DNA of 62,857 nucleotides, filler included. It is 6 parts of 6 records of this genome, joined end to end, with 100 filler letters (N's around TTAATTAATTAA, not from the genome) between each part and the next. Parts side by side here need not be neighbours in the genome. Positions count along the whole stretch, not along the records: positions 1 to 19,881 come from DRR723986_3121; 5 more parts are not named here. One strand, written 5' to 3'. Both the position numbers and the translations under genes were made by a program. Positions within the stretch are counted from its first letter, which is position 1. Every line of letters begins with the position of its first letter. Below, one piece after another: positions 1-17,356 of this stretch. Below the pieces are notes generated by a model. That model was not told the DNA's origin and searched no databases. It saw nothing but the letters and a program-made list of their open reading frames with translations.

Positions 1-513
1 CAGCAGCTTGCAGAGCGCGACGCGGCGGCGCTCACCACCGGAAAGATTGTCGACGGCTGCATCTGATGGCGGGCAGCGCAGGGCTTCCATCGCCATTTCC
101 ACCTGACTTTCCAGGTTCCACAGATCCTGCGCGTCAATCTCGTCCTGAAGCTGTGCGGCTTCCTCGGCGGTTTCGTCCGAGTAGTCCATCATCAACTCGT
201 TGTAGCGGTCGATCTTCGCCTGCTTGTGGGCAACACCTTCCATGACGTTTTCCATCACGGTCTTGGTGTTGTCGAGCTGAGGTTCCTGCGGCAGATAGCC
301 GACTTTCGCACCCTCGGCCGCCCAGGCCTCACCGGTATATTCCTTGTCGATACCGGCCATGATCTTCAGAAGGGTCGACTTACCCGCACCGTTCGGGCCC
401 AGGATACCGATCTTGGCGTCCGGGTAGAACGAGAGATGGATGTTGTCGAGAACCTTCTTGTCGTTATAGGCCTTGGACAGGCCATGCATGTGATAGATGA
501 ACTGGCGCGCCAT
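1..513 (-). CDS. ettA: Energy-dependent translational throttle protein EttA (ABC-F), 5' part; runs off the window edge
   Basis: Reverse strand from ATG at 513 reads MARQFIYHMHGLSKAYNDKKVLDNIHLSFYPDAKIGILGPNGAGKSTLLKIMAG (Walker A), with the signature LSGGERRRVAL near position 1. Confidence 0.93.
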   Translation of the reverse strand, partial: MARQFIYHMHGLSKAYNDKKVLDNIHLSFYPDAKIGILGPNGAGKSTLLKIMAGIDKEYTGEAWAAEGAKVGYLPQEPQLDNTKTVMENVMEGVAHKQAKIDRYNELMMDYSDETAEEAAQLQDEIDAQDLWNLESQVEMAMEALRCPPSDAAVDNLSGGERRRVALCKLL

Positions 514-848
514 GGGGCTCCGCTTCTCCGCTTTCAAAATCTGATGGGATTCTCAGGAATTCTGCGGCGTCTTTTAGGGGAAATGGCGCCCGGGGGCAAT
601 GGGGGGATTTGCCTGAGAACGCCTGTAGAGTTCGTCTCGCAATCAGGCATTACCTGTGCAATCGCAATTAGACCTCTTCCTTGGCCAACTTCCAGCCACC
701 CTCGCTTTGGGATAAGTGTCCTTTTCATTGGACAGTTTACGGACCGACTCCGATTACCAAAGTTTCCAGAAAGCACGCCGCCCCACTCGCGTTAAACGCC
801 GGCCGCTATATTCAGAATTGCAGTTACGCCCAAGAACCTGCCCACCCT

Positions 849-1001
849 GTCATTCCGGACAAGTGCAGCTACGCTGCATGCCGATCCGGAACCCAGCGTG
901 TCAGCGTGAGCAAAGCGAACACTCAATTTGCCGCGCATGGCGCGAAATATCTCTGGATTCCGGATCGGCGCTCGACACCTGTCTCACTTGTCCGGAATGA
1001 C
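849..1001. repeat. REP/MITE-like nested palindromic element (CGTC-tagged type)
   Basis: Perfect 17-bp terminal inverted repeat GTCATTCCGGACAAGTG (849-865)/CACTTGTCCGGAATGAC (985-1001), enclosing a second 17-bp inverted repeat (880-896/953-969) with one mismatch. Confidence 0.85.
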
Positions 1002-1153
1002 GGCGGAATACGCCGTTTCACAGATGAAGTGAGCCAAAAGCGCTTCGAGGGTGACGAAATTTGCGTACCAACTCTGCCCATTCGGCTCTTTTCTCCCCCA
1101 ACCGAAGACCTTAAGGTCACCTCACCTTTCTTCATCACCCCACCGGACCTGCC

Positions 1154-2107
1154 ATGACCTCCATCGATATTCTGATGCCCCGCCCGATGCTGCCGATCGT
1201 TCAGGAGCAGCTTGATGCCGCCTTCACCGTGCACCGGCTCTACGAGGCCGATAATCCGGAAGCGTTGCTGGCGGAAATCGGCGGGAAAATCCGTGGGGTT
1301 GCCATGGCATTCGGGCCGGTCAACGCCGAGTTGCTTGCCAAAATCCCGAACGCGGAAATCGTTTCCAGCTTTGGCGTCGGCTATGACCACGTCAACACGG
1401 ACGATTGCCTGGCGGCGAAGGTGATGGTGACCCATACGCCCGATGTGCTGACGGAAGAAGTTGCCGATACGGCGGTCGGGCTGATGATCATGACCATCCG
1501 CGAATTTGGCCAAGCCGAACAGTGGCTTCGCCGGGGCAATTGGGAAAGCAAGGGGCCCTACAGGCTGACCGGGGCGACCATGCAGGGGCGCACGCTCGGC
1601 ATCTTTGGTCTGGGGCGCATCGGCAAGGCGATTGCCAAGCGGGCCGAAGCCTTCGGCATGAAGATCCATTACCATGGACGCAGCAAACAGGACGACGTCT
1701 CCTACCCCTACCACGCAACGCCGAAGGCGCTGGCTGCGGCCTGCGACACGCTGATGGTGGTGGCGCCTGGTGGCGCGGAAACGAAACATGCGGTCAATGC
1801 GGAGGTGCTGGAAGCACTTGGGCCGGATGGTATCGTCATCAATATCGGCCGGGGCACCGTCATCGACGAGGCCGCATTGATCGCGGCCCTTGAAAACGGC
1901 ACGATCTACGGTGCCGGTCTCGACGTCTTCGAGAACGAGCCGCATGTGCCCGAAGCCCTTCTGAAACTGCCAAGGGTCACCGTACTGCCGCATGTCGGTT
2001 CCGCCTCGCAGGCGACCCGCAATGCCATGGGTCAGCTCGTGGTCGACAACCTGAAAAGCTGGTTCGAAACTGGCAAGGCCATAACGCCAGTGCCGGAAAT
2101 GCGCTGA
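1154..2107 (+). CDS. D-isomer-specific 2-hydroxyacid dehydrogenase (GhrB/HprA-like)
   Basis: GVGYD, GLGRIG Rossmann motif, NIGRG, LDVFENEP and LPHVGSA catalytic motifs. Confidence 0.92.
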   Translation: MTSIDILMPRPMLPIVQEQLDAAFTVHRLYEADNPEALLAEIGGKIRGVAMAFGPVNAELLAKIPNAEIVSSFGVGYDHVNTDDCLAAKVMVTHTPDVLTEEVADTAVGLMIMTIREFGQAEQWLRRGNWESKGPYRLTGATMQGRTLGIFGLGRIGKAIAKRAEAFGMKIHYHGRSKQDDVSYPYHATPKALAAACDTLMVVAPGGAETKHAVNAEVLEALGPDGIVINIGRGTVIDEAALIAALENGTIYGAGLDVFENEPHVPEALLKLPRVTVLPHVGSASQATRNAMGQLVVDNLKSWFETGKAITPVPEMR

Positions 2108-2167
2108 GATTGAGGGCATGCCAGGGCTGCTCGACAACCCGACCCAATTCTTTTCCCGGCTCAGTAT

Positions 2168-2195
2168 TTGACACGCCCGACTTGTGCCTTAGGTT
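2168..2195 (+). promoter_or_regulatory. Putative sigma70 promoter for the downstream structured RNA
   Basis: TTGACA (2168-2173), 16-nt spacer, TAGGTT (2190-2195); no convincing ORF follows on this strand. Confidence 0.55.
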
Positions 2196-2199
2196 TATG

Positions 2200-2500
2200 G
2201 ATCAAGCGCATCCTTTCTGCTTGCGATGCGCTTACCCGATAGGCGTGGATCCATCAGACCACATAAACCACGCCGGGATGCCGACTGGGGCGGCTGGTGA
2301 ACCAAAAGACGAATGCGTTCAGAAGCCTACTCAACACCGGCTGTTCGCCCGGATCCGTGAGCGGGTCCAGTTTGCCTGCGGAAGTGGCCCGTTTGCTCGG
2401 GGTACCTCGCAACGGCAGAAGACGACATCCCAGGTCGCAGAAGGTGGCTGGCGACGTAACCTCCGCCAGCACCCTGGGCCGGCCCCTTCCGGGCCGGTCC
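2200..2500 (+). ncRNA. Putative structured ncRNA (IS110 non-coding-end/bridge-RNA-like architecture, no adjacent transposase)
   Basis: Consecutive and nested helices: 2204-2212/2225-2233, 2242-2248/2268-2274, 2275-2283/2423-2431, 2288-2299/2335-2346 (G-U rich), 2359-2365/2388-2394, 2447-2453/2464-2470, and terminal hairpin 2476-2500. Confidence 0.6.
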
Positions 2501-2546
2501 GCACCGAAACACCTGTTGCTGAGGCAAGGCCCAAAACTGAACCTTC

Positions 2547-2900
2547 TCACTTCGTTCCACCGGCCGGGCACCTGAACGGTGTAAAGGTGCTGCCCATGTT
2601 TGCGCTGACGGTCATCATCGTCAGAATGTCGGCAAAGGCGAATTCGGCGGGTGTTTTCGGGCAAACGGCTTTCGCCGCGAAACACCCCCCTTCGATAAAG
2701 GCATCATGTTCGGCAACGAAACCGGGCCGCATTTGCGAACGACTGACATTTTCGAACGCCACCCGGACGATCTCCTGGTAGTAGGCGCATCTTCTGGTGC
2801 GCTTTTGTTCGCGTGTTTCCTCGGCAGATGCCTGGGAGAAAACAGCTACTACCGCGACAAGCGCCAACGGCAAGACAAACAAGGTTCTTGGAACGGACAA
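2547..2900 (-). CDS. Small secreted hypothetical protein with 4 Cys
   Basis: GGAG RBS 6 nt before TTG start; N-terminal hydrophobic signal peptide ending in ASA; directly downstream of bla on the same strand. Confidence 0.7.
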   Translation of the reverse strand: MSVPRTLFVLPLALVAVVAVFSQASAEETREQKRTRRCAYYQEIVRVAFENVSRSQMRPGFVAEHDAFIEGGCFAAKAVCPKTPAEFAFADILTMMTVSANMGSTFTPFRCPAGGTK

Positions 2901-2983
2901 GGCTGACTCCGTCGGAAGCTGCAGGACATTTCCAGAGGCAGAGGCGCCCGGGCGAATGAAGGGATCCGCCCGGACGAGAACAC

Positions 2984-3880
2984 TCAGTCGTGGAGACTTT
3001 CGGCAAGTGCGGCTGCGATATCGGCAATCGCCTTGTTGCGGTCGTCAAAGGAAGCGTCGGTCTGCGTGATATAGACCGCGATCACGACGGGCTCCCGATC
3101 GTCTGGCCAGATCACGCCGATGTTGTTGCGCGAGCCATTGGCCCCAGCCCCGGTCTTGTCGGCGACCGGCCATTCTTCCGGCAGCCCGGCACGCAAGGTC
3201 GCGTTACCCACCTTGTTGTCCAACAGCCAGCCTGTCAGCTGGGCTCTGGCGGTGGACGAAAGGGCATTGCCCAGAACCAGTTTCTGCAACGTGGCAACTG
3301 CCGCTGCCGGGGTGGTGGTGTCACGGGCATCGCCCGGCCGGCCTTCATTGAGACCCGGCTCCGCCCGGTCCAACCTAGTGATGGTGTCGCCAATACCCCG
3401 AAGGTAATCCGTGAGTCCTGCCGGTCCACCGACAGCCTCCAGCACGAGATTGGCCGCCGCATTGTCGCTGATCGCAACGGCCGCTTCACACAGTTCCAGA
3501 TAGGTCATTCCTCCGGAGCCGACCTTTTTCTCGGTAACCGGCGAATAGGAGACGAGGTCTTGCGAGCGGATCTTCACGCGGCGTTCCGGCTGAACCTCAC
3601 CCTGCTCGCCCTTTTCCAGAAGGGCGGCACACAGAAAGGCCTTGAAGGTGCTGTTGAGCGGAAAACGCTCGTCGGCGCGGTGGGTCCAGGTCTTGCCGGT
3701 TTCCGTATCCAGCACCGCTACCCCGATCCGGGCAGACAGTCGGCTCTCGGCACCGGTGACGGTTTTCTCAAGTGGTGCGGGTTCGAACCCGGCGGCGTGT
3801 GCCAATCCGGAAATTGCCGGAAACCCGGCAAAAAGGGCAAGGGAAAGCGTCAACGCGTTACGGCGTGTCCAGAGTTTCAT
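2984..3880 (-). CDS. bla: Class A serine beta-lactamase
   Basis: STFK (SxxK), SDN, DRAEPGLN (omega-loop E166) and KTG motifs; GGAG RBS before ATG 3880; twin-arginine-like signal TRRNAL. Confidence 0.95.
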   Translation of the reverse strand: MKLWTRRNALTLSLALFAGFPAISGLAHAAGFEPAPLEKTVTGAESRLSARIGVAVLDTETGKTWTHRADERFPLNSTFKAFLCAALLEKGEQGEVQPERRVKIRSQDLVSYSPVTEKKVGSGGMTYLELCEAAVAISDNAAANLVLEAVGGPAGLTDYLRGIGDTITRLDRAEPGLNEGRPGDARDTTTPAAAVATLQKLVLGNALSSTARAQLTGWLLDNKVGNATLRAGLPEEWPVADKTGAGANGSRNNIGVIWPDDREPVVIAVYITQTDASFDDRNKAIADIAAALAESLHD

Positions 3881-4007
3881 CTTCAACTCCAATGATGAAT
3901 ACAAACAGCCCGAACCGGTGTGGTGTGTCGCCCCCCGCACCATTCGTCTTCGGGACACCGCGACAGTGCCGCTGCCTCAGATATAACGCAAATGATGAAT
4001 ACTGAGG

Positions 4008-4033
4008 TTAGACATGAGTAAAACTTGGCCTAA
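4008..4033. promoter_or_regulatory. Possible AmpR/LysR operator
   Basis: Imperfect dyad TTAGACATGAGT-AAA-ACTTGGCCTAA in the divergent bla/ampR intergenic region. Confidence 0.35.
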
Positions 4034-4044
4034 GTTGGATCCGG

Positions 4045-4914
4045 ATGGACGTCTCGAAACTTCCGCTCAATGCCTTGAGAGCCTTTGAAGCCTCTGCAAG
4101 GCTCTGCAGCTTTACACGCGCCGGCCTGGAACTGCGGGTATCGCAGACTGCCGTCAGCCACCAGGTGAAGGCGCTGGAGGACGTGTTGCAGGTGTCCCTG
4201 TTCGAGCGCCTTCCGCGCGGCGTTGCCCTGACGGACGAAGGACTGGCGCTGCTACCTGTACTGAGCGATGCCTTCCGGCGGATGAGCGATGCGCTCAGCC
4301 GGTTCGAGGATGGCAACTACCGGGAGGTGCTGACGGTCGGCGCCGTCGCCACTCTCGCGACCGGCTGGCTGTTGCCCCGCCTTTCCGGCTTTGCCAGGGC
4401 CCATCCGCAGATCGATCTGCGGCTGAAAACCAACAACAACCGCGCGGACATTCTTGCAGATGGTCTCGACTGTTTCCTGCGCTTCGGCGACGGGGCCTGG
4501 CATGCCACCAACGCGGTCAAGCTGATGGACGCCCCGCTATCGCCTATCTGTTCACCTGGAACCGCTGCCCGGCTAACCAAGCCGGAAGACCTTGTGCACG
4601 AGCCCCTGCTGAGATCCTACAGGTTGGATGAATGGGCCATGTGGTTCCAGGCAGCGAAACTGCCGCCACCACGGGCGCGTGGCTGGATGTTCGACAGTTC
4701 TCTTGCGATGGTTGAAGCTGTCACGCAGGGCGCGGGCGTCGCACTGGTGCCGACAGCGATGTTCAGCCGCCCCCTCGCGTCCGGCGTGATCGTGCAGCCT
4801 TTCCAGACCAGCGTCCTGACGGGAAGCTACTGGCTGACCTGGCTGAAGTCGCGGGAGGAGACCAGCGCCATGCAGAAGTTCCGCTTGTGGATGCTGGAGA
4901 CGGTTTCCACGTAA
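4045..4914 (+). CDS. ampR: AmpR-type LysR transcriptional regulator
   Basis: LPLNALRAFEASAR HTH start, VSQTAVSHQVK, TNNNR, RFGDGAW and FDSS AmpR-like motifs; divergent from the beta-lactamase. Confidence 0.9.
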   Translation: MDVSKLPLNALRAFEASARLCSFTRAGLELRVSQTAVSHQVKALEDVLQVSLFERLPRGVALTDEGLALLPVLSDAFRRMSDALSRFEDGNYREVLTVGAVATLATGWLLPRLSGFARAHPQIDLRLKTNNNRADILADGLDCFLRFGDGAWHATNAVKLMDAPLSPICSPGTAARLTKPEDLVHEPLLRSYRLDEWAMWFQAAKLPPPRARGWMFDSSLAMVEAVTQGAGVALVPTAMFSRPLASGVIVQPFQTSVLTGSYWLTWLKSREETSAMQKFRLWMLETVST

Positions 4915-4933
4915 AAGGAGGCAATCGCTCACC

Positions 4934-5659
4934 TCAAGGCTTTCGCCCCTTCACCATTTCGCGTTTGCCGGCAAAGCCTTCAGCCTTTTCAATCTCGAAC
5001 CCGGCAGCCTGAAGATTGCGGCGAACCCAGCCGGCAGCCGTGTAAGTTGCCAATGTTCCACCATGGGCCGTCAGGTCAGCCGCCACCTTCAGAAGGTCCG
5101 CGTCCCAGAGCTCCGGATTGCGTGCCGGACTGAAACCGTCGAGAAACCAGGCATCGATGGGGGCAATTGCCGGTTCTCCTCCCTCGCCCTCACCTGCCAT
5201 TCCGGCGTTCAGCTCACCGATCAGCTCACGCGCATCGCCAATGCCGATCTGGAGGTTGGCTCCGCCAATTGTCAGGCTATTCCAACCCGTCTCGGGCGAC
5301 CAGGCCTGCAGCAGCTCATCTGCCAGCGGGGCCAGTTCGGGAAAGGCCGCAAGGGCCCGCGCCAGCTGTTCTCCCGTCATCGGGAACAGTTCGAAGGTCA
5401 CGAACGTCAGGTCCGGCCGATTGGTCCTTTCCTGCCACGCCGCAAGGGTGGTGAGGAAATTGAGGCCTGTTCCGAAGCCGAACTCTGCAATGGTGAAACG
5501 CTCGCAGCCATCGAACCGGCCAGGCAAGCCATTTCCTTGCAGAAACACGTGACGCGTTTCTGCAAGCCCCCCGGCCTTGGAAAAATACGTGTCGTTGAAG
5601 CCTTCAGCCCGGGGCACATCGCCCTGCAGCCATTCCAGATCCGGTGCCTTGATCGACAT
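4934..5659 (-). CDS. mnmD: tRNA 5-aminomethyl-2-thiouridine methyltransferase (stand-alone MnmC methyltransferase domain, MnmD)
   Basis: FNDTYFS, ETRHVFL, EFGFGTGLNF, WFLDGFSPARNPELW and KREM motifs. Confidence 0.88.
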   Translation of the reverse strand: MSIKAPDLEWLQGDVPRAEGFNDTYFSKAGGLAETRHVFLQGNGLPGRFDGCERFTIAEFGFGTGLNFLTTLAAWQERTNRPDLTFVTFELFPMTGEQLARALAAFPELAPLADELLQAWSPETGWNSLTIGGANLQIGIGDARELIGELNAGMAGEGEGGEPAIAPIDAWFLDGFSPARNPELWDADLLKVAADLTAHGGTLATYTAAGWVRRNLQAAGFEIEKAEGFAGKREMVKGRKP

Positions 5660-5763
5660 GATCTTGAGGTTTCCTTCGGGGCGCACCCATCAGCCTTTGC
5701 CATTTGCAACGCGTTCTCATAAGAGAGCCGACAGGATCAATCAATCTCAAAGGACCCCGCCCC

Positions 5764-6924
5764 ATGGCAGCAACCGACGCCGAAACTTTCGATGTTGCCA
5801 TTGCCGGAGCCGGTATTTTCGGTCTCGCTGTTGCCCGGGCAGCGATCGAGGCCGGGCTGAAGGTGGTCGTTCTTGAGAAAAGCTACGTTGGTGCCGGGTC
5901 CAGTGGAGGTGTGCTGGGGGCGTTGATGCCGCACATGCCGGCACGCTGGAACCCCAAGAAGGAATTCCAGTTCCAGGCCCTGCTGTGTCTGGAAGACCGC
6001 ATCCGCCAACTGGAAAGCCAAACAAGGCTTTCCTGCGGCTATCACCGTTGTGGACGCATCCTGCCGCTGACGACAACCGACAAGCTGGAGCACCATCTGG
6101 AGCGGGCGGAAGAAAGCAAGCTGCGCTGGCAACCTCAGGAAACCGGTTTTACCTATGTGGTTGAACCTGCCGGAAGCCGGTCTGACTGGCTGGACGCGAA
6201 TGCCGCTCCCTTCGGCATCGTCTATGAAACCCTTGCCGCGCGGATCTCCCCAAGGGCTTATCTGGCAAGCCTTGCCAGCTTCGTCCGCCAGAACGGCAGT
6301 CTGCGGGAAGGCGTTGAAGCGGTCGGTTACGAGGATGCAACACAGACCGTCCTGCTCGCCGACGGACATGCCCCCGTCAAGACACGGCAATTCGTCGTTT
6401 CAGGAGGATTTGCGGCTTTCGACCTGCTCGAAACGCTGACCGGCGAACGCATCGGACGTGGAGAGAAAGGCCAGGCCCTTGTGCTGGAGGGCAAGGGACT
6501 GGAAGACAGGCCAGCGATCTATTGCGACGGGCTTTACGTCGTGCCGCATGACGACGGTACCGTCGCCATTGGCAGCACATCCGAACGGGAATTCGAAGAC
6601 GCCGCCCCCTCACCAGCCCGTTCAACCGAACTGCTGGAACGCGCCACCGCCTTTTGTCCGCAATTGAAGGGCCGAGAGGTTCTTTCCGACTGGGCCGGTA
6701 TCCGCCCCCGCAATTATAGGCGAGACCCGTTGGCAGGAAAACTGCCTGGCTTTGACACCGCCTTCGCGGCAACAGGCGGCTTCAAGATATCCTTCGGCAT
6801 TGCACATCTGATAGCGGATGCCCTGGTGGCGGAGATGACTGGCAGAGAACCTGTTGTTCCTCTGCCAGAGACATTTCGCCCGGCGCACCACTTCGGCAGC
6901 GGCAGACTGGATGCAGATCGCTAA
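5764..6924 (+). CDS. FAD-dependent oxidoreductase (DAO family, MnmC C-terminal-like)
   Basis: GAGIFG dinucleotide fold, KGQ, WAGIRP and GGFKISFGIA; divergent from mnmD. Confidence 0.8.
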   Translation: MAATDAETFDVAIAGAGIFGLAVARAAIEAGLKVVVLEKSYVGAGSSGGVLGALMPHMPARWNPKKEFQFQALLCLEDRIRQLESQTRLSCGYHRCGRILPLTTTDKLEHHLERAEESKLRWQPQETGFTYVVEPAGSRSDWLDANAAPFGIVYETLAARISPRAYLASLASFVRQNGSLREGVEAVGYEDATQTVLLADGHAPVKTRQFVVSGGFAAFDLLETLTGERIGRGEKGQALVLEGKGLEDRPAIYCDGLYVVPHDDGTVAIGSTSEREFEDAAPSPARSTELLERATAFCPQLKGREVLSDWAGIRPRNYRRDPLAGKLPGFDTAFAATGGFKISFGIAHLIADALVAEMTGREPVVPLPETFRPAHHFGSGRLDADR

Positions 6925-7069
6925 AGGAGCTCGCGTTCACGCAATCGCCGACCGCAGAAGCCGACGGCGCGCATGCAATGAAAGGTTGTATATGCGATTG
7001 CGGGTGATGAGACATGACCGCGAACTTGACGCGGTTCGTTCAATCACAATCGGTTTACGCACCTGCTGC

Positions 7070-7165
7070 CTAGATGGCAGCAACCACCGCGTAAAGACCG
7101 TAAAGGCTGAGCGAAATCGTCCCCCAGAACAGGAGATTTTTCGCCACCAAAAATGGCAAATTCAT
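7070..7165 (-). CDS. 31-aa small membrane peptide (hypothetical)
   Basis: MNLPFLVAKNLLFWGTISLSLYGLYAVVAAI; single hydrophobic helix; purine-rich GGGTGG just before ATG. Confidence 0.55.
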   Translation of the reverse strand: MNLPFLVAKNLLFWGTISLSLYGLYAVVAAI

Positions 7166-7343
7166 AGACCCACCCTGATGAGCTGCATAGTCAGCCTGCT
7201 TCCTCCTCTCCACCCCAGAGGATTCAACTTCGGTTCCGGCTGTAGCTGCTCTCGCCATTTCGGCAATCCTTGAACGACTTAACCAATAGCCATCTGGAAC
7301 CCATTTCCATCGGCCACACACAGTACCGTTTACGTCGTAAATG

Positions 7344-7359
7344 GTTAAAACCCGTTTAA
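7344..7359 (-). promoter_or_regulatory. CtrA-binding box
   Basis: Minus strand reads TTAA-ACGGGTT-TTAAC, an exact TTAA-N7-TTAAC consensus. Confidence 0.6.
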
Positions 7360-7495
7360 GATTAACATGAATCTTTTCTTAATTTACAGCACAATGAAAT
7401 TGTTGATATGCACAAATTATGGCCCGGCCCGCGCAGCTCTTGCGCGTCCCTCCCTGCCGGTCTTGTTTGATCCGACCTGAAGGAAGCCCTGCAGC

Positions 7496-7981
7496 ATGAG
7501 CCTTGAAAGCGTTCGCAACCACCTTGCCAGTGCCGCCCCCGAACTTGAAGTCATCGTGACGGAAGACAGCAGTGCCACGGTCGACCTTGCCGCCAAGGCA
7601 CATGGGGTCGAGCCCGGACAGATTGCCAAGACGCTCTCGTTTCAGCTCAAGGACAAGATCTTTCTGGTGGTTGCCCGCGGCGATGCCCGCATGGACAACA
7701 AGAAGGCGAAAGCAACCTTTGGTGGCAAGGTGAAGATGCTGGGCCTTGATGAAGTGGAAACGCTGACAGGCCACCCCGTCGGCGGCGTATGCCCTTTCGG
7801 CCTTGCCCAGCCGTTGCCTGTCTACTGCGATGTCTCGCTGAAGGAATATGACGTGGTCATTCCCGCCGCCGGCGCGACCAATGCCGCCGTCAGGATACCG
7901 CCGGAGCGCATAGCAGAAATCACCGGTGCGGAATGGGTGGACGTCTGCCAGCCACCGCAGGATGCGTCACCGCAAGCATAA
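7496..7981 (+). CDS. YbaK/EbsC family aminoacyl-tRNA deacylase
   Basis: QIAKTL, TGHPVGGVCPFG and PAAG motifs. Confidence 0.88.
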   Translation: MSLESVRNHLASAAPELEVIVTEDSSATVDLAAKAHGVEPGQIAKTLSFQLKDKIFLVVARGDARMDNKKAKATFGGKVKMLGLDEVETLTGHPVGGVCPFGLAQPLPVYCDVSLKEYDVVIPAAGATNAAVRIPPERIAEITGAEWVDVCQPPQDASPQA

Positions 7982-8023
7982 GAGCCACATGAATCCAGAC
8001 GTTCGCCCGGTGCCTGCCAGGCG

Positions 8024-9037
8024 TTACGCCCGGTAATAGTCCCGGTACCATTCGACGAACCTGGCAACGCCTTCCTGCACTGTGGTCTTCGGTCGGTACC
8101 CCGTAAGGCTTTGCAGCAGATCCGCATTGGCCCAGGTCGCCGGAACATCGCCGGCCTGGATCGGCATGAGATTGCGTTCGGCGGTCCGGCCCGTAGCTGC
8201 CTCAATGGCTTCGATGAACTCGGTCAGCTGAACGCAGGTCGAATTGCCGATGTTGACCACTCGCCAGGGAGCAACCGGCGAAAGGCTGTCGCCTTCCTTC
8301 ACCCCTTCTCCCTCTGCCGGGCGAACAGGCACTGCGTCCATCAGCAGCCGGATGCCTTCGACGAGATCTTCCACATAGGTGAAGTCTCGTTTCATGTCGC
8401 CGTAGTTATAGACGTCGATCGGCTTGCCTTCGAGGATCGCCTTGGTGAACTTGAAGAGAGCCATGTCGGGCCGTCCCCAGGGCCCGTAGACGGTGAAGAA
8501 GCGGAACATCGTCACCGGAAGGTCGTAGAGATGTGCATAGGAATGCGCCATCGACTCTGTTGCCTTCTTGGTCGCCGCGTAGAACGACATCTGGTGGTCG
8601 GCCTTGTCGGTCTCCGCATAGGGCATTTCGGTGTTGGCGCCATAGGCGGACGACGTGGACGCCAGCAGCATGTGTTCCGGCGGAAAGGCCCTGGCTGCCT
8701 CGAGCAGCTCGAACGTTCCGCAGATATTGCTTTCCAGGTAGGAGCGCGGCGCTTCGATGGAATAGCGGACACCGGCCTGCGCTGCCAGATGAATGACAAA
8801 ATCCGGCCGCTCGGTACGGAACAGGGACATCAGCAGGTCCGGCGCCTCAACGCGGTCGTTCACCGGCTTGAAATGCTCGTTCTGCATCAGCATCTGCTGC
8901 CGGCGTTCCTTCAGGCGGACATCATAGTAATCCGTCATGGCATCGAGGCCGATCACCCGAAAGCCGTCCTTCAGCAGTCGGGTACACAGGTAAAAGCCAA
9001 TAAACCCCGCAGAGCCGGTCACCAGAACGGTTTTCAT
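8024..9037 (-). CDS. NAD-dependent epimerase (UDP-glucuronate 4-epimerase, CapI/LpsL-like)
   Basis: TGSAGFIG, HLAAQAGVRYS, YAATKK and RFFTVYGPWGRPDMA. Confidence 0.92.
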   Translation of the reverse strand: MKTVLVTGSAGFIGFYLCTRLLKDGFRVIGLDAMTDYYDVRLKERRQQMLMQNEHFKPVNDRVEAPDLLMSLFRTERPDFVIHLAAQAGVRYSIEAPRSYLESNICGTFELLEAARAFPPEHMLLASTSSAYGANTEMPYAETDKADHQMSFYAATKKATESMAHSYAHLYDLPVTMFRFFTVYGPWGRPDMALFKFTKAILEGKPIDVYNYGDMKRDFTYVEDLVEGIRLLMDAVPVRPAEGEGVKEGDSLSPVAPWRVVNIGNSTCVQLTEFIEAIEAATGRTAERNLMPIQAGDVPATWANADLLQSLTGYRPKTTVQEGVARFVEWYRDYYRA

Positions 9038-9400
9038 GATTTGCCCAAAGCCTTTCGATCAAAAATTCATTTTACAAAACGCGTAAGTAGGTCAGCCAAG
9101 TTATTAAAAGGCTTCGAAGGTTCGGGCAATGGCGAAGTCTGCCCGAACCATCTTGGCCACCTGGAACCGCGTCACTTACAGACACCACAACACCTAGTAC
9201 AAAATGGATTACCGCGGCGTGACACGCCCACAGAGCTTCTGAAAAACGACCGGTTCCCGAACGAAATTCCAGCTCGTCTGGCCGGCATATCGTATCGGTC
9301 CCACAAACGAAAAAGCCACCCGCGTCCTTGCAACGCGGATGGCTGTATTTCAGATGCCTGTGCAGGTCATCAGCCTGGCAAGGTCACCTTCGGCGTCTTG

Positions 9401-11335
9401 TCAGATGCCGCCGCCGTCGGCGGAGAAGCTGTTCAGGAACCCGCGCTTGCGCAGATACTCAACGATCTCCTCGGCAACTTCTTCCGGTTCCCGGCCGACG
9501 TTGCGAATATGAAGTTCCGGATTTTCCGGCGCTTCATAGGGGCTGTCGATACCGGTGAAGTTCTTGATCTCGCCCCGGTCGGCCTTGGCATAAAGGCCCT
9601 TCGGGTCGCGTTTGCGGCATTCCTCGATGGGCGTATCGACAAAGACCTCGATGAACTCACCGTCTTCCAGGAGATCGCGCGCCATCTGCCGCTCCGAGCG
9701 GAACGGCGAGATGAAAGATACCAGCGTGATCATGCCCGCATCCGCAAAGAGCTTGGCCACCTCGCCGACACGGCGGATGTTTTCCACCCGGTCGGCATCG
9801 GTAAAGCCAAGATCCTTGTTGAGCCCGTGACGGACGTTGTCGCCGTCGAGCGTATAGGTGTGCCGCCCGTCGACATGCAGTTTCTTTTCGACGATCGACG
9901 CGATGGTCGACTTGCCGGACCCGGAGAGGCCGGTGAACCAAAGGACTGCCGGCTTCTGACCGAGTTTTTCAGACCGGGCGTTCTTGTCGACGTCGAGGGC
10001 CTGCCAGTGAATGTTGCTTGCCCGGCGCAGCGCGAACCAGACCATGCCCGCACCAACCGTCGAGTTGCTCATCCGGTCGATCAGGATGAAGGAACCGGTT
10101 GTGTGGTTGGCCTCATAAGGATCGAACGGCACCGCGGAGGACAGTGAGAAATTGCAGAACGCGATTTCATTCAATGCCAGCGTCTTGCCGGCCACATGCT
10201 CGAACGTATTGACGTTGATCTTGTGCTTGATCTCGGAGACCGTCGCCGTCACCGTGCGAGTGCCGATCTTCATCAGATAGGGCCTGCCCGGCAGCAACGG
10301 CTCGTCCGACATCCAGATGACATGGGCGGCAAACTGGTCGGCAACATCCGGGCGATGTGCGGTCGATGTCAGAAGATCGCCGCGGGAGATGTCGATTTCA
10401 TCTTCCAGCGAAATGGTGACTGCCTCGCCGGCCCGGGCGGAGCTGACTTCACCGCTTGCGCCGATGATCGACTTTACTTTGGACTGCTTTGCCGGACCGG
10501 CAACCACCAGTTCGTCGCCAACCGACACCTGGCCGCTGGCCACCGTACCGGAATAGCCGCGGAAATCGAGGTTGGGCCGGTTGACCCACTGCACCGGGAA
10601 GCGAAACGGGGCTTCCAGCACATGTTCGCCCACCTGAACCGTCTCCAGGTGCTCCAGAAGGGTCGGTCCGGAATACCAGTCCATCTTGTCGCTGCGCCCG
10701 GTGACGTTGTCGCCATAGCGCGCCGACATCGGAATTGCCTGCAGGGTTTCGAAATCGAAGCCGTTGGCAAAGACCTCGAATTCCTTGCGGATTTCCTCAA
10801 ATCGTTCCTGGGAATAGCCGACAAGGTCGATCTTGTTGATGGCCAGCACAACGTGGCGGATGCCCAGCAGCGACGCGATGAAGGCGTGGCGACGGGTCTG
10901 GACCATCAGGCCGTTGCGGGCATCAACCAGCAGCACGGCAAGGTCGGCGGTGGAAGCGCCGGTGGCCATGTTGCGGGTGTATTGTTCGTGGCCCGGGGTA
11001 TCGGCAACGATGAACTTGCGCTTTTCGGTCGCAAAGAACCGGTAGGCAACGTCGATGGTGATGCCCTGCTCGCGCTCTGCCTCAAGACCGTCGACCAGCA
11101 GCGCCAGATCGATGTCCTCTCCCACGGTGCCATGCTTTCTGGAATCGCGTTCCAGCGCGGCCAACTGGTCTTCGAAGATCAGCTTGGTGTCGTAAAGCAG
11201 GCGGCCGATCAGGGTCGACTTGCCATCGTCAACGGAACCGCAGGTCAGGAAGCGGAGCTGGTCCTTGCTTTCCTGTGCCAGGATATAGTCGGTGACGGCT
11301 GTCTCTGCAGCTTCCTGTATGTTCTCGATCGTCAT
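9401..11335 (-). CDS. cysNC: Bifunctional sulfate adenylyltransferase subunit 1 / APS kinase (CysNC, NodQ-like)
   Basis: [38 protein letters not shown], then kinase domain [12 protein letters not shown]...DGDNVRHGL. Confidence 0.95.
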
Positions 11336-11336
11336 C

Positions 11337-12266
11337 TTAGAAATATCCTTCCCGCTTCTTCTTCTCCATCGACGCACTTTCATCCTTGTCGATGAGGCGG
11401 CCCTGGCGTTCGGATGTACGGGCAATCAGCATTTCGCGGACAATGGCGGGCAGCGTATCGGCATCCGATTCAATGGCGCCGGTCAGCGGGTAGCAGCCGA
11501 GCGTGCGGAAGCGGACCATCTTTTCCTCGATCTCTTCGCCGGGCTGCAGTTTCATGCGGTCGTCGTCGACCATGATCAGCATGCCGTCGCGGTTCACGAC
11601 CGGGCGCTTTGCAGCGAAATAGAGCGGCACCATCGGGATGTCTTCCGTCAGGATGTACTGCCAGATATCCAGCTCGGTCCAGTTGGACAGCGGAAACGCA
11701 CGGATGCTCTCGCCCTTTGCCACACGGGCATTGTAGAGGTTCCACAGTTCCGGCCGCTGGTTCTTGGGGTCCCAGCCGTGATTGGAATTGCGGAAGGAGA
11801 AGACGCGCTCCTTGGCGCGCGACTTTTCCTCGTCCCGGCGCGCGCCGCCGAAGGCGGCATCGAAGCCGTATTTGTTCAGTGCCTGTTTCAGCGCCTCGGT
11901 CTTCATGATGTGCGTATGAACCGAGGAGCCGTGGGAAAACGGGCCGATATTCTTTTCAAGCCCTTCCGGGTTGGTATGGACGATCAGGTCCATGCCGAGA
12001 CGCGCGGCGGTCTCGTCACGGAAGGTGATCATGTCCCGGAATTTCCAGGTCGTATCCACATGCAGCAGCGGAAACGGCGGCTTGGACGGATAGAATGCCT
12101 TCATCGCCAGGTGCAGCATGACGCCGGAGTCCTTGCCGATGGAATAGAGCATCACCGGATTGGAGAATTCGGCCGCGACTTCGCGGATGATGTGGATGCT
12201 TTCTGCTTCCAGCCGCTTCAGATTGCTGAGGCGCTCGGGCGAGATCCCGTGAGATTGCATGTTCAT
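11337..12266 (-). CDS. cysD: Sulfate adenylyltransferase subunit 2 (CysD, NodP-like)
   Basis: [46 protein letters not shown] and C-terminal KKREGYF; start codon approximate. Confidence 0.95.
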
Positions 12267-12347
12267 GTTCGCTTTTCCGTTTGGCCGGCGAACCGGCCGT
12301 ATCAATCGTTCGGCACGGGCCAACTGCCCGCGCAATTTTGCAAATCG

Positions 12348-13190
12348 TCAGGCAGCGGGCGCGACATCCCGCAGGAGGTTCCTGCACCCGGCTGCCAGAA
12401 AAAACGGGTTCCGCAGATCGTCCTTGCGGGCGTTTTCCGGCACCCGGTAGACAAAGTCCTCGCCGGTTGAAGCCAGAACGACCGCCCCGCCGGCGGCGCG
12501 TACAACTGCATCGCCGGCGGCAATGTCCCATTGCATCGTGGGCGCAAGACGGGGATAGAAATCGGCCCGGCCGGCAGCCACCCAGCACAGCTTCAGCGAC
12601 GAGCCGACGTTAAGCTGCTCGGCGACACTCAGCCGTGAAATCAGGGCAGAGGTTTCTTCCGAAAGATGAGAGCGGCTGGCGAGTACGCTGATGCCGTCCA
12701 CCGGCGGCGTGCGAACGGAGATAGGCGCAACATCGCTGATGCCGCCGTTCGCGATGGTTCCCTTGAAGGCCCTGGTTTCGGTTTTGCCGTTGTCCCGGAA
12801 TTCCCCACCCCAATAGATCTCTTCGAGGGCTGGTGCGGAAACCACGCCGAACACCGGGCGGCCATCCTCGATCAGGGCGATGTTGACGGTGAACTCGCCG
12901 TTCTTCTTCAGGAATTCCTTGGTTCCGTCGAGCGGGTCGACCAGGAAGTACCGCGCACCTGCCGCAGGCAGCTTGCCGGCTTCGACCGCTTCTTCGGCCA
13001 CCACCGGAATGTCGGGGAATTTTTCCGCAAGGCCCGCAAGAATGATTTCCTCGGCTGCCGCGTCGGCCTTGGTCACCGGAGACCCGTCGACCTTGTTCTC
13101 GACCTCGAAAGGTTCCGCGTAGATTTTGAGGATTTCCTCTCCGGCCCTCAGGGCCAGCCGGTTCAAGAAAGATATCTGGTCTTCAGTCAT
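12348..13190 (-). CDS. cysQ: 3'(2'),5'-bisphosphate nucleotidase CysQ
   Basis: SPVTKAD, LVDPLDGTKEF, GSSLK and WDIAAG inositol-monophosphatase-family motifs. Confidence 0.93.
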   Translation of the reverse strand: MTEDQISFLNRLALRAGEEILKIYAEPFEVENKVDGSPVTKADAAAEEIILAGLAEKFPDIPVVAEEAVEAGKLPAAGARYFLVDPLDGTKEFLKKNGEFTVNIALIEDGRPVFGVVSAPALEEIYWGGEFRDNGKTETRAFKGTIANGGISDVAPISVRTPPVDGISVLASRSHLSEETSALISRLSVAEQLNVGSSLKLCWVAAGRADFYPRLAPTMQWDIAAGDAVVRAAGGAVVLASTGEDFVYRVPENARKDDLRNPFFLAAGCRNLLRDVAPAA

Positions 13191-13495
13191 CGATGCCTCA
13201 ATTCGCGCCGGGAAATATTGCCCCCCGCGCTGTCCGCCCGCGTGGCTGTCCCGTAAATAGAAAGGTACAGTGTATCAATTCAAGGAATGGTGTTCCACGT
13301 TTTCGCCTGAATACAAAAAGCTCAGGTTTCTCTGACCCTCGCAAGGGAGCTTTTGTTGCTCCCAACATGGTCCTATGCAGGGCTTTACCTGACTGATCCA
13401 TACGTGGATTCACCGATTGGCAAGGGCTTTGCGCCTAAACTTACCCCAAATGGGGGTTAAAGTGCCCTTGGACACCATGAGAATGCGAGAAACCC

Positions 13496-14005
13496 ATGTC
13501 GGACGCCAAACCATTTCCGCACGCACCTGCGGATGAGAGCGCCAGCGAACAGATGCCGCGGGAGCGGCGGGCACGCGTGTTCAAGAAAGGCAAGATGGTC
13601 TTTCAAAACGGGCTGAGATCCATTCCCTGCATGGTGCGCAACATCTCCGAAGGCGGCGCTTTGCTGGAATTCGAGCAGGCCTACATGCTGCCCAAGGAAT
13701 TCGACCTTCATATCGACCTGGAAGACTATGAAGTCACCTGCGAACGCCGCTGGGAGGAAGGACTTCGCTGCGGCGTCCAGTTCATCGGCGAGAAAAGGCA
13801 TGTGGCCGCACAGCGCGCGCAAGTGCTGAAAAGCTCCGAAGAAGCGCTGAGAAGCGAACTCGATGAGCGCCGCGACAGCCCGGACAACTTTTTCCAGCGC
13901 CGCCACCAGGACGAACCACATGCTGACGAGCGCACCTCCGTGCGTCGCAACCGGCAGGACGCAAGTGCCGGCGCCGGCAAGCCGACCTTCGGCAAGAGGC
14001 GCTGA
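13496..14005 (+). CDS. PilZ-domain protein
   Basis: RERRAR (RxxxR) and NISEGG ([DN]xSxxG) c-di-GMP motifs; C-terminal FGKRR tail. Confidence 0.8.
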   Translation: MSDAKPFPHAPADESASEQMPRERRARVFKKGKMVFQNGLRSIPCMVRNISEGGALLEFEQAYMLPKEFDLHIDLEDYEVTCERRWEEGLRCGVQFIGEKRHVAAQRAQVLKSSEEALRSELDERRDSPDNFFQRRHQDEPHADERTSVRRNRQDASAGAGKPTFGKRR

Positions 14006-14193
14006 TACGCTGCGCGCGGCGAAATACGTCAGATACCCCTCCTCTTCGCGGTGTTCGACAGCCAGCCAGAAAGTGCACCCTGCCCCCAAGGCAGAATGCC
14101 GGCTTCCACGCCAGCCTCAAAATTCCTGGATATGATCCGACTTCCCGTCGTACCCTTTGAAGACCACGCCAAGGCGTGTTTCGAACCAGGATC

Positions 14194-14745
14194 ATGACCA
14201 GGAAACAGCCCGTGGCGACCCCCCTCTACGACATGAGCGTGCCAACCTTCCTGCAAACGGCACGCGCTGTCAGCGGGTTTCTTCAAAAGGCGGCAATCCA
14301 TTGCCAGCAGACAGGCACCGATCCGGGCGACTTCGCGACCGCGCGGCTTTATCCGGACATGGCTCAGTTCTGGTTTCAGATCGAGTGCGTCGACAATTTT
14401 TCCGTCTGGGGCCTGGAAGCAATGAGAACGGGTGCCTTCACCCCGCCGCCGCTTGTCGGACCAGCTCCATATGCAGATCTGCAGGACCGGATCGCGCAGA
14501 CAGTGACACGTTTGCAGGCCTATACGCCTGCCGAGGTAAACGACTGGTCGGGCCGGCCTCTCGACCTTGATCTGGTTCACATCAGCCCACGGCCGATGCC
14601 CCTGACATCGGAGACCTTTCTCCTGTCCTTCCTGCTGCCGAACTTTCATTTCCACGCTGTCACCGCCTACGACATCCTGCGCACGCGCGGCGTGCCCATC
14701 GGCAAGCGCGACTATGAGGGTCAGTTGCGTACGAGGCCGGACTGA
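14194..14745 (+). CDS. DUF1993-family protein
   Basis: ARLYPDM and LPNFHFHAVTAYDILRTRGVPIGKRDY motifs; start approximate. Confidence 0.85.
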   Translation: MTRKQPVATPLYDMSVPTFLQTARAVSGFLQKAAIHCQQTGTDPGDFATARLYPDMAQFWFQIECVDNFSVWGLEAMRTGAFTPPPLVGPAPYADLQDRIAQTVTRLQAYTPAEVNDWSGRPLDLDLVHISPRPMPLTSETFLLSFLLPNFHFHAVTAYDILRTRGVPIGKRDYEGQLRTRPD

Positions 14746-14920
14746 CGGCCCTCACCCTCCCCCTCACCCTCACCGGCAGAAACGGACGGGCTCGCCAACT
14801 GGAAAGCCGCGCAGGCCATTCATCCAGTTTCGGGGCCGTTTTCAAGACACCTGCGCAAACAGATATGGCCCACCGGGCAAAACCCGGCAGGCCATATCGT
14901 CAGCAGAGGTTCAAAACCTC

Positions 14921-15517
14921 TCAGGCCGCCTGGCGTTCACGCTCCAGCGTCCGCACGGTGGCCGGGCGTTCGCTGCACCGCTTCACCCAGTCACGGATCG
15001 CCGCGTTGTCCGGCAACATGTCCGGCAGCCACAGGAACGGACCGCTGCACAACAGGTCGACGGCGGAATAGGTTTCGCCAAGCAGGTAAGGCTGCTTTTC
15101 CAGCGTTTCCGCCAGCCGCGCGACCATCGTGTCGAAATCGCGCAGGCTCGCCTCCACGGCCGGATGCGTAAACTGGGCGAATTTCAGGATGATGACCGGC
15201 TCCATCACGCCCTGATAGTAGAACAGCCAGGACAGATACTCTCCGCGCCCCGGCTGGCCTTCGATCGGCCCCAGCCCGGCTTCGGGAAACTTGTCGGTAA
15301 GATAAAGCATGATCGCACCGCGCTCGCGGATCCCCTCGGCACCATCGACCAGGTAGGGCACCTTCTTTTCCGGATGCGGGTTGGATGCATCCGGCCCGCC
15401 CGAGCCATCCTGCCGGCGAACCGTCACTTCCTTCACCTCGACGTCGGCTCCCAGCTCTTCGATCAGGGTCACGATCGCCGAAGACCGGCTGTTGGGAGAA
15501 TGGTAAAGCGTCAACAT
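14921..15517 (-). CDS. Glutathione S-transferase family protein
   Basis: MLTLYHSPNSRS, HPEKKVPYLVD, ERGAI and YLLGETYSAVD; GGAG RBS. Confidence 0.88.
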   Translation of the reverse strand: MLTLYHSPNSRSSAIVTLIEELGADVEVKEVTVRRQDGSGGPDASNPHPEKKVPYLVDGAEGIRERGAIMLYLTDKFPEAGLGPIEGQPGRGEYLSWLFYYQGVMEPVIILKFAQFTHPAVEASLRDFDTMVARLAETLEKQPYLLGETYSAVDLLCSGPFLWLPDMLPDNAAIRDWVKRCSERPATVRTLERERQAA

Positions 15518-15589
15518 GGGAAAGCTCCTTTTCTTTGTGACGCCAGAGGTATAGCTTCCCCCTGCTGACAATTTACGGCAGGAGCAAAA

Positions 15590-16309
15590 ATGGCCCGCAT
15601 GGACAGGCTGATGCGCCTGATGGATACCCTCAGGCGCCTTCCCCAACCGGTCACCGCCGCGCGCCTTTCCGAAGAGACCGGCGTTTCCCTGCGCCAGCTC
15701 TACCGCGACATCGCGACCTTGCGTGCGGGCGGCGCCCTGATCGACGGGGCCGCGGGCGTCGGCTACACCCTGACGGAAGATCCCGTGCTGCCGCCGCAGA
15801 GTTTCTCCCGGCTTGAAATCGAGGCGCTGATGCTGGCGCAAAGCGGGCTGGACCAGATCGGCGACGAGACACTGAAAAAGGCCGGCCGCAACGCCATGGC
15901 CCGCATCATCGCCACCCTGCCCGACCGGCAGGCGCGCCAGGCCATGCACACGGTGATGCGCAGCTGGCGGCAGCCGGACAAGCGCCCGCCGGTGACAGTG
16001 GATCTCGACCTGTTGCGTGAGGCCTGCTGGGAGGAATTCAGCGTGATCATCACCTATCGTGACCTGCAGGAGCGGACGACCACAAGGGAAATCTGGCCGA
16101 TGGGCCTGTCCTACAGCGAAACCTCGCTGCTGCTGCTCGCCCATTGCCGCCTGCGGCAAGACTACCGCCACTTCCACGTCAGCCGGATCACCTCACTGGC
16201 GCCCGGCACCGAAAGCTTCCGCCCCAACCGGGTGGCCCTGCTGCGCGACTACATCCAGCAACGGGGATATGACCGGAACAGGTCACCTCGGCGCGGTGAA
16301 GTTGGGTAG
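15590..16309 (+). CDS. HTH-WYL domain transcriptional regulator (YafY family)
   Basis: VSLRQLYRDIATL HTH, GAAGVGY and AHCRLRQDYRHFHVSRI WYL-type motif. Confidence 0.9.
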   Translation: MARMDRLMRLMDTLRRLPQPVTAARLSEETGVSLRQLYRDIATLRAGGALIDGAAGVGYTLTEDPVLPPQSFSRLEIEALMLAQSGLDQIGDETLKKAGRNAMARIIATLPDRQARQAMHTVMRSWRQPDKRPPVTVDLDLLREACWEEFSVIITYRDLQERTTTREIWPMGLSYSETSLLLLAHCRLRQDYRHFHVSRITSLAPGTESFRPNRVALLRDYIQQRGYDRNRSPRRGEVG

Positions 16310-16381
16310 CAGGAGAGCTTGGAATAAGGTTGTTTCAAGATGCGGAGTTTTCGGGGTAGCTGGTCACAGGCGACGAAGTGA

Positions 16382-17128
16382 TCACGATACTTTCGGTTCA
16401 TCCTTGATAAGGAAGAGATCATCCCGGAAAAGGGATTTCAGTTCAGCGCGACGTTTCGAGAACCTGTCAAAGTCATTGACCACATCGTTGATATCTTCCG
16501 TAACCTGTACCAGGTACCCTCCTCCGATCCTCTGCACGGGAAACCCAGCAGCAGAGATCGCAGCCTCGTCAACTTCATGAACGAACCTACGACCATAGAA
16601 CATTCCCCACCCGATGTTGGGGATCTTCGCATCCACAATTGTAAAGGAGCGGAAGTAACTTTCTGGCGTGTTGGATTGGGCTGGTTCGTTATCGAACGAT
16701 GTAAAGCAATGGAGCATTGCTAAATCGGCATTCATTACTTCGCATATACGCGCTCCCAAATGACGCCAATCCGTTTTTTTGTGCAGTGGTGCATAAACGC
16801 TTAAACGCCCATCAAGAGTGTTTCCTCTTGCATCTTTGCGAGTATGATTAATTTCAGCTTCATATTTCGCGACCTTATTACGTTTCCAGCGAAGGCCAAT
16901 CGAAAATTCCGACAAAACCCCGTTTACCCGCATTTGAGCAACCTGTGCCCAGTAGGGTTCAACTTGTTCGACAGAAATGAATGGGCCTATTTTGTCGTCC
17001 CAATGAAAGAGGACTTCTGGGATAAGTTGTGTCCCAGTCTCTTCGAAAGCCGCCAGAACCTGCTTGCCCAAGGACCAATCAGTCGTCGGCTCCGAGCTGA
17101 TCGCGAAAAATTTTATCTCCGATGGCAT
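16382..17128 (-). CDS. Putative polymorphic-toxin immunity protein (Imm52-like), with IS-derived N-terminus
   Basis: C-terminal IPNIGWGMFYG...FPVQRIGGGYLVQVTED pattern resembles Imm52-type proteins; lower GC than the flank; family call from recall only. Confidence 0.5.
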   Translation of the reverse strand: MPSEIKFFAISSEPTTDWSLGKQVLAAFEETGTQLIPEVLFHWDDKIGPFISVEQVEPYWAQVAQMRVNGVLSEFSIGLRWKRNKVAKYEAEINHTRKDARGNTLDGRLSVYAPLHKKTDWRHLGARICEVMNADLAMLHCFTSFDNEPAQSNTPESYFRSFTIVDAKIPNIGWGMFYGRRFVHEVDEAAISAAGFPVQRIGGGYLVQVTEDINDVVNDFDRFSKRRAELKSLFRDDLFLIKDEPKVS

Positions 17129-17352: not shown

Positions 17353-17356
17353 GACT

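Follow-up and report, generated by a model that had tools for sequence, protein, structure and literature searches.

An intergenic gap of a marine bacterium of the genus Roseibium (Stappiaceae, Alphaproteobacteria) probably holds a stand-alone gene for a small non-coding RNA (sRNA), which is restricted to one species, is encoded on the + strand and acts in trans, and which is not a bridge RNA of the IS110 family of insertion sequences (IS) or a remnant of one. The gap lies in a stretch of 62,857 nucleotides (nt) made up of six joined parts (hereafter, the window), the first 16 kb of which are from Roseibium. The original prediction had described the segment 2168-2500 as a structured RNA with its own promoter and with the architecture of an IS110 bridge RNA. 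Our analysis supports the first part of this description, a promoter-driven, non-coding and structured RNA of the + strand, and not the link to IS110 or to bridge RNAs. The gap itself, predicted to be about 440 nt long, spans 439 nt in the window sequence (2108-2546) and separates two convergent genes, a dehydrogenase-like gene on the + strand and an open reading frame (ORF) of 117 amino acids (aa) on the - strand (Table 1).

The first line of evidence is expression. Four RNA-library runs (X1, X2, X4 and X9) were compared over positions 1150-3960 as assembled contigs, using 31-letter words; of these, X9 comes from a size-fractionated RNA library and represents a single run of a single sample. 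In X9, a 21.7-kb contig reached up to 2242 with a depth of 139.3 and a 4.8-kb contig started at 2418 with a depth of 104.6, and hundreds of short contigs covered the stretch between them. The summed contig k-mer depth was 145,093 at 2184-2277, 584,803 at 2278-2371 and 266,923 at 2372-2465, and returned to the background value of 104.6 in the next bin (2466-2559). At single positions, the depth was 5,038 at 2224, 527,644 over 44 contigs at 2359, and about 300,000-350,000 at 2409-2413, and the excess over the flanks amounted to approximately 1,000- to 5,000-fold. Contigs built from 31-letter words would be expected to break at 2242 and 2418 if many molecules start at 2213 and end at about 2447, and the bin means are compatible with an RNA end near 2447-2449. 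This excess is strong evidence that an abundant small RNA exists at the locus, and the bacterium probably has few small transcripts that are more abundant. The transcript called for by the original prediction was found as a discrete species far above its flanks over about 2213-2447 in the X9 contigs, and it would start near 2200.

The second line of evidence is the pattern of variation among five copies of the gene, namely those of the window, of genome G116 and of three metagenome contigs, all of which are from the same locus. In the RNA body, 10 of 246 sites (4.1%) were variable, compared with 11 of 60 in the spacer past the dehydrogenase gene, 14 of 41 in the spacer leading up to the 117-aa gene and 13 of 83 in the intergenic region that follows (16-34%), and with 6.7-7.8% in three coding regions. 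When the body was set against the three spacers in Fisher's test, p was 1e-7, a value that is overstated because the copies are related. Judged from this alignment, the RNA body is under more constraint than the neighbouring spacers. The changes that do occur are found in loops or bulges (2219, 2224, 2359 and 2413), or keep a predicted pair, as in the change from G-U to A-U at 2290 with an inserted A and from U-A to U-G by 2404A>G; those that break a pair are given below.

The same alignment points to a promoter. The motif TTGACA-N16-TAGGTT is present at 2168-2195 as had been predicted, and all five variable sites of the segment 2168-2201 fall inside its 16-nt spacer, an arrangement with a chance of about 0.016 over the 34 positions. 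Since the hexamers are invariant and the spacer varies, we read the motif as a + strand promoter; this combination is the signature of a working one. The RNA has a sigma-70-type promoter of its own, as do stand-alone bacterial sRNA genes.

The RNA was also found to be non-coding. The earlier statement that the gap contains no credible ORF was upheld by Pfam, by protein searches and by frame-breaking polymorphisms. None of five ORFs across the region matched a Pfam family, and the two long frames, when searched as proteins against 132 genomes of the family Stappiaceae, gave only chance-level matches of 18-23 bits, the best of which was antisense inside a 675-aa gene whose translation looks penicillin-binding protein-like to us. 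Two of the five copies carry one extra nucleotide at 2289/2290, which disrupts every frame. The only short frame with an ATG (2313) is closed by TGA owing to the G at 2359 of the window, where the other copies and all four runs have C (TCA). Thus, no conserved protein that overlaps the RNA, which would have spoken against the prediction, was found. A pseudogene remnant was considered as well and rejected, as six-frame tblastn against the syntenic loci yielded nothing and the searches with the long frames remained at chance level.

Three observations point to the + strand as the origin of the RNA, namely the promoter pattern, the G-U pairs of the predicted arm 1 and the changes from G-U to A-U. 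The argument from G-U pairs, made in the original prediction, held, since the arm-1 helix contains four of them, which would be C-A mismatches if read from the - strand. In G116 and in copy L121, the change G2290A together with an inserted A turns two of the arm-1 G-U pairs into A-U pairs and lengthens the helix. In addition, X9 contained junctions to presumed Illumina adapters. These stood before the sequence at 2213, 2303 and 2304 and behind it at 2325, 2341 and 2402, and all six listed, among 18 junctions, share one orientation, with read 2 on the + strand. This is the orientation that a + strand RNA would give in a dUTP-type stranded library.

The predicted fold agrees for the most part with the earlier description. 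The two 5' hairpins (2204-2233 and 2242-2273) and the two 3' hairpins (2442-2475 and 2476-2500) were recovered, and the closing helix at about 2275-2283/2423-2431 recurred in every fold. Arm 1 fared less well, being formed in the centroid fold and in the two-sequence consensus fold and absent from the minimum free energy (MFE) structure of the window itself. The second arm, described as a stem at 2359-2394, did not hold up and resolves instead into a hairpin at 2351-2368 and an irregular hairpin at 2371-2419. Robust in all folds are hairpin 1, these two core hairpins, the closing helix and the two 3' hairpins. The segment 2200-2505 folded better than shuffled sequences on the + strand (z = -3.2, 0 of 100 shuffles as good), mostly because of the two GC-rich 3' hairpins, and z was -2.7 on the - strand. 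For the body of the G116 copy, z was -2.4. Folding energy alone is weak evidence, and the case that the feature exceeds chance rests on expression and on the pattern of conservation.

Several points weigh against a stand-alone sRNA gene. The promoter is absent from the list produced by a simple scan for strict consensus, because its -10 hexamer matches the consensus at only three of six positions. The body alone (2202-2447) folded with z = -1.5 on the + strand (14 of 200 shuffles as good) and -1.8 on the - strand. No Rho-independent terminator was found on the + strand by a terminator scan, and the hairpins at 2442-2500 lack a U-tract and lie outside the abundant species, which ends short of them; the 3' end thus has no terminator to account for it. 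None of the 112 predicted pairs in the five-sequence alignment, and none of the 56 in the two-sequence core, showed a double change, and predicted pairs are broken at 2282, 2343, 2404A>T, 2409 (in X1) and 2368. The copies are 97% or more identical, so the absence of covariation says nothing either way. Expression comes from one run of one sample, and contigs cannot show ends, strand or a calibrated level; X1, X2 and X4 carry the locus only on long flat contigs and are uninformative on transcription, with no cover at 2748-2935 in X2. Finally, action in trans is drawn from analogy.

The distribution of the RNA gene is narrow. Of 132 Stappiaceae genomes, only G116 has it, a result on which BLAST and a core covariance model (R1) agree, and by both methods it is single-copy there. 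Beyond G116, the 132 family genomes gave only eight short BLAST matches of 23-48 nt. It was not detected in any of 401 order genomes, where three short BLAST matches all fell in the 3' GC hairpins, and 61 genomes around G001, a genome matched by a distant part of the window, gave one 29-nt match only. Five Roseibium genomes gave none, and no match was obtained in 72,556 plasmids, in phages, in viral contigs (22-mer) or in genome contigs (exact 33-mer). Model R1 matched G116 only among the 132 genomes and nothing in 39 loci, and with filters off it found nothing in 10 further loci, where all E values were 0.29 or worse. A 22-mer scan of metagenomes led to the three contigs used above, which carry the same locus at 96.6-97.0% identity and add no diversity. 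The known copies, including the contigs of the four RNA runs, are 95.7-97.3% identical and have a constant context.

In related bacteria, the same spot carries something else or nothing. The empty-site comparison proposed with the original prediction revealed Roseibium species with nothing at the site and others with different cargo. In six loci (L008, L017, L019-L021 and L064), the beta-lactamase-like gene comes immediately after the dehydrogenase gene. In L016, the 117-aa gene lies about 85 nt past the dehydrogenase gene with an ordinary terminator between them, and in L009 another small gene precedes it; L009, L015 and L016 also vary downstream of position 4948. Roseibium aggregatum IAM 12614 and two relatives (L004-L006) carry a 3.1-kb insert past the dehydrogenase gene (4951-8075 of L004) with ORFs of 664 and 171 aa, which, from our reading of the translations, are presumably methyl-accepting chemotaxis protein-like and secreted-protein-like, respectively. 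Judging from these gene orders, the spot between the dehydrogenase and beta-lactamase genes is a variable cassette site in Roseibium. None of the cargo of the other species resembles the RNA gene. The gene is therefore young, and it either came in from a source not yet sampled or arose at the site. As a possible signature of insertion, the flanks contain only a direct repeat of 9 nt (2072-2080 and 2523-2531), about as long as chance would give.

Taken as a working scheme, transcription would start near 2202, and the transcript would be trimmed at its 3' side before the 2447-2470 hairpin and perhaps at its 5' side after hairpin 1, giving a stable, multi-branched core of about 200-235 nt. The GC hairpins without U-tracts would insulate the two converging units; functions as insulators or terminators are likely for them. 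By analogy, the RNA most likely acts in trans, and as such a riboregulator it would contact an mRNA or a protein most readily through the A-rich, weakly paired interior of arm 1 (2300-2334). RNAduplex, applied to 14 start regions in the window, produced artefactual duplexes over the whole length; a single region scored better than 99 of 100 shuffles, not a significant outcome among 14. The RNA is unannotated, matches no known family and occurs in one species only. With sister species that have nothing or other cargo at the site, the locus offers a dated natural before-and-after comparison for the origin and fixation of new regulatory RNA genes. It is a striking transcript and a clean example of a young sRNA gene at a cassette site, although such orphans are common.

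Table 1. Features of the RNA locus and its flanks (window coordinates; "." where no strand is assigned)
Feature	Position	Strand	Remark
-35 hexamer TTGACA	2168..2173	+	invariant in 5/5 copies
Promoter spacer, 16 nt	2174..2189	+	variable at 2175, 2176, 2180, 2185, 2189
-10 hexamer TAGGTT	2190..2195	+	invariant in 5/5 copies
RNA body	2202..2447	+	5' end predicted from promoter at ~2201-2204; abundant species ~2213-2447, most depth from ~2250; ends are hints only
5' hairpin 1, perfect 9-bp stem and 12-nt loop	2204..2233 (2204-2212/2225-2233)	+	predicted in folds; variable sites 2219 and 2224 in loop
Hairpin 2, GGCGTGG / CCACGCC	2242..2273 (2242-2248/2267-2273)	+	predicted in MFE folds
Core domain	2272..2435	+	closing helix 2272-2283/2423-2435; predicted in consensus, MFE and centroid folds
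Arm 1 of core	2287-2299/2335-2350	+	predicted; A-rich, mostly unpaired interior 2300-2334; four G-U pairs
Core hairpin	2351-2368	+	predicted; tetraloop UGAG in window, UCAG in all other copies
Irregular core hairpin	2371-2419	+	predicted in folds
Two GC-rich hairpins between converging units	2442-2475 and 2476-2500	.	no U-tract on either strand; 4/58 sites variable; outside abundant RNA
D-isomer-specific 2-hydroxyacid dehydrogenase-like gene, 317 aa (upstream flank)	1154..2107	+	ORF; context marker, outside RNA
Fast-evolving spacer past dehydrogenase stop codon	2108..2167	.	11/60 sites variable, 5 copies
Downstream convergent gene, 117 aa, predicted secreted protein	2547..2900	-	ORF; no Pfam family

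The main rival of a trans-acting sRNA gene is a stable protein-bound RNA, that is, a scaffold or sequestrator in a ribonucleoprotein (RNP) as are 6S, Ms1 and CsrB, which would be processed at both ends with its 5' and 3' parts paired. It takes this place because of the abundance of the RNA and the missing terminator, and we regard it as unlikely, if the least unlikely of the alternatives. The abundance in X9 is within the range expected of housekeeping RNAs, the abundant species ends at about 2447 with no terminator hairpin, and the MFE structure of 2202-2447 pairs 2233-2240 with 2433-2446 as a terminal helix; a multi-branched RNA of about 200-235 nt is atypical of Hfq-type sRNAs. Nevertheless, by our count there is no enrichment of GGA motifs (250 nt contain about 5, versus 4-5 expected), a genuine 6S RNA is encoded elsewhere in G116, and a range of one species is unusual for core RNP RNAs. 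A bolder possibility, to which we give only a small chance, is that the RNA founds a class not described so far. It would be a stable RNA of recent birth or acquisition with housekeeping abundance, and trimming of both ends would leave a multi-branched core about 200 nt long, which would serve an unlinked protein as its RNA subunit, scaffold or guide and would not be an ordinary antisense riboregulator. If so, it would be an unusually clean case of the birth of an sRNA gene, with one species carrying it and sister species showing the site empty or with other cargo.

It is improbable that the RNA is an expressed but functionless filler of a recombination-prone spot, arising from a fortuitous strong promoter or from the leader of a lost cassette gene. 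The differing cargo of the site among Roseibium species (nothing, a small gene or the 3.1-kb chemoreceptor cassette) would suit such an origin, as would the confinement to one species, the lack of covariation and the variants that break predicted pairs. A filler would not be expected, however, to have a body and promoter hexamers that are four to eight times less variable than the adjacent spacers and no more variable than coding DNA, and no trace of a lost gene was found at the DNA or protein level.

Slightly less credit still is given to an origin of the abundant RNA from the - strand, for example as a processed fragment of the 3' untranslated region of the mRNA of the 117-aa gene. The contigs carry no strand information, the body folds about equally well on both strands (z = -1.8 on the - strand versus -1.5), and in ligation-type stranded libraries the observed adapter orientation would mean a - strand RNA. 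On the other hand, by our own reading the - strand has no promoter-like hexamers at 2450-2510, and the stretch that would link the RNA to the 117-aa gene (2466-2546) is at background depth. The conserved hexamers and variable spacer fit a + strand promoter, arm 1 would hold four C-A mismatches, and the loop of a hairpin would contain the left end at 2213.

A bridge (seek) RNA of the IS110 type, whether free-standing, domesticated or part of a non-autonomous derivative served in trans, is very improbable, and sequence, covariance model, copy number and context all disfavour it. The loose likeness of architecture, a closing helix and arms with internal loops, speaks for it, as does the existence of IS110 recombinases in the genus. 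In R. aggregatum IAM 12614 (G062), at least 35 matches to PF01548, the IS110 family, were counted, versus one in G116. The resemblance to left ends of IS110 elements on which the original prediction had drawn was not recovered, the best BLAST match against 30 IS110 loci from four Roseibium genomes being 24 nt long with an E value of 0.85, and model R1, used in the search for structural homologues beside IS110 genes, matched none of 18 IS110 loci. This comparison covers local elements only; Rfam 15 gave no matches even on 11 true IS110 loci. The window contains no IS110-type ORF, as tblastn with the ORFs of the 30 loci found one chance match of 26 aa that is 15 kb away, and the flanks, consisting of the dehydrogenase gene and a small gene for a predicted secreted protein, agree with the earlier statement that no recombinase is adjacent. 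The only PF01548 match of G116 is about 1.46 Mb from the RNA. The RNA does not behave as a mobile multi-copy element either, with one copy in G116, all five DNA copies at the same locus, and no similarity in plasmids or in 533 other genomes of the family and order.

As contiguous strings, the two large loops of the RNA gave no sign of guide function, although short split guides are conceivable. Their 14-nt strings had 0 and 3 extra sites in G116 with one mismatch, versus 2 and 4 for a reversed control, and the longest match to the repeat at 849-1001, which resembles a repetitive extragenic palindrome (REP) and had been suggested as a target, was 7 nt, where shuffles usually gave 7-9. This repeat consists of nested inverted repeats with 17-nt arms, the outer pair (849-865/985-1001) perfect and the inner pair (880-896/953-969) 94% complementary, and represents a family of dispersed palindromes, about 165 nt long and MITE-like or REP-like in appearance, to which G116 has 44 matches and G062 has 35, with both strands of a palindrome counted. 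Two sources place bridge RNAs in an element's non-coding end, adjacent to its recombinase gene (PMC11208160; bioRxiv 10.64898/2026.10.21.760802), the first of them specifying the left or right non-coding end of IS110, next to a RuvC-like/Tnp recombinase gene. The RNA described here has no such location. We therefore consider that the label of an IS110-like orphan guide should not be assigned by shape alone.

The least credible alternative, an mRNA for a small protein, could start at ATG 2313, which opens 15 codons in the window and about 48 in the other copies (those with C at 2359), but the length of this frame depends on the strain through the stop polymorphism at 2359, no convincing Shine-Dalgarno sequence is seen by our own reading, the indel at 2289/2290 breaks the longer frames, and there is no Pfam match.

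As for the surroundings, the dehydrogenase gene is 94% identical to its counterpart in R. aggregatum IAM 12614; its name, 2-hydroxyacid dehydrogenase, is our own reading of the sequence. In the spacer that follows it, the last 18 nt (2150-2167), immediately 5' of the -35 hexamer, are invariant in the five-copy alignment. The 117-aa gene also occurs in other Roseibium species that lack the RNA, and its N-terminus appears signal-peptide-like to us in translation. Past it are ORFs that we take from their translations to be class A beta-lactamase-like and then LysR-type. Just before the stop codon of the 117-aa gene, 14 positions of a 31-nt segment (2508-2538) differ in copies L121 and L122 (two of the five), which looks like a small replaced patch rather than point divergence.

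G116 is collinear with the window at 608-4046 and 6001-16308 with approximately 97% identity. Where this collinearity stops, a patch of low GC content begins (16000-20000, 41-51% versus about 58-60% elsewhere), in which the ORFs at 16382-17128 and 18354-18989 match no Pfam family. The segment 20001-35684 is collinear with neither G116 nor G001, and 35685-40000 is 97% identical to G001, a genome of 4.0 Mb that matches window positions 1-6000 in one gene only (71%). The genes at 35685-40000 are of housekeeping types (malic enzyme/PTA, class II aaRS-like and PS decarboxylase). This composite look reflects either chimerism of the assembly or the transfer of a large segment in the very recent past.

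The RNA does not belong to a described family. At gathering thresholds, Rfam 15 gave no match in the whole window, and on 2050-2950 at E values up to 10 it gave only two chance matches; thus no known family that might have overturned the original prediction was matched. ARAGORN found no tRNA or tmRNA. 6S RNA and alpha tmRNA were considered and rejected, as they have no Rfam match here and G116 has 6S (75 bits) and alpha_tmRNA (296.7 bits) at other loci. A literature search on small RNAs of Roseibium or Labrenzia found no relevant paper.

Of the known systems, the IS110/IS1111 bridge (seek) RNA, as presented by Durrant et al. 2024 (PMC11208160), is also a structured non-coding RNA of about 180-250 nt with a sigma-70-like promoter and with stems that enclose internal loops. 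The RNA of the window differs from it in lying outside any IS, with no adjacent recombinase, in being single-copy and in having no likeness to the local IS110 ends, and sites complementary to its loops in the manner of target or donor DNA were not found in G116 or in the repeat at 849-1001 beyond control levels.

6S RNA (RF00013) resembles the present RNA in its very high abundance, its length of about 200 nt and the possible pairing and processing of the ends, whereas the shape predicted here is multi-branched rather than a rod with a central bubble and has no Rfam match. Stand-alone trans-acting sRNAs of Alphaproteobacteria include AbcR1/2, MmgR and NfeR1. Compared with these and with the horizontally acquired 'island' sRNAs of enterobacteria, the RNA is about twice as long (approximately 200-246 nt), has no terminator made of a hairpin and a U-tract, seems to lack the downstream hairpins in its mature form, and has no Rfam family and no homologue beyond one species. 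Nevertheless, it shares with both groups a sigma-70-type promoter of its own, an intergenic position, a structured and non-coding product, high abundance and a narrow range.

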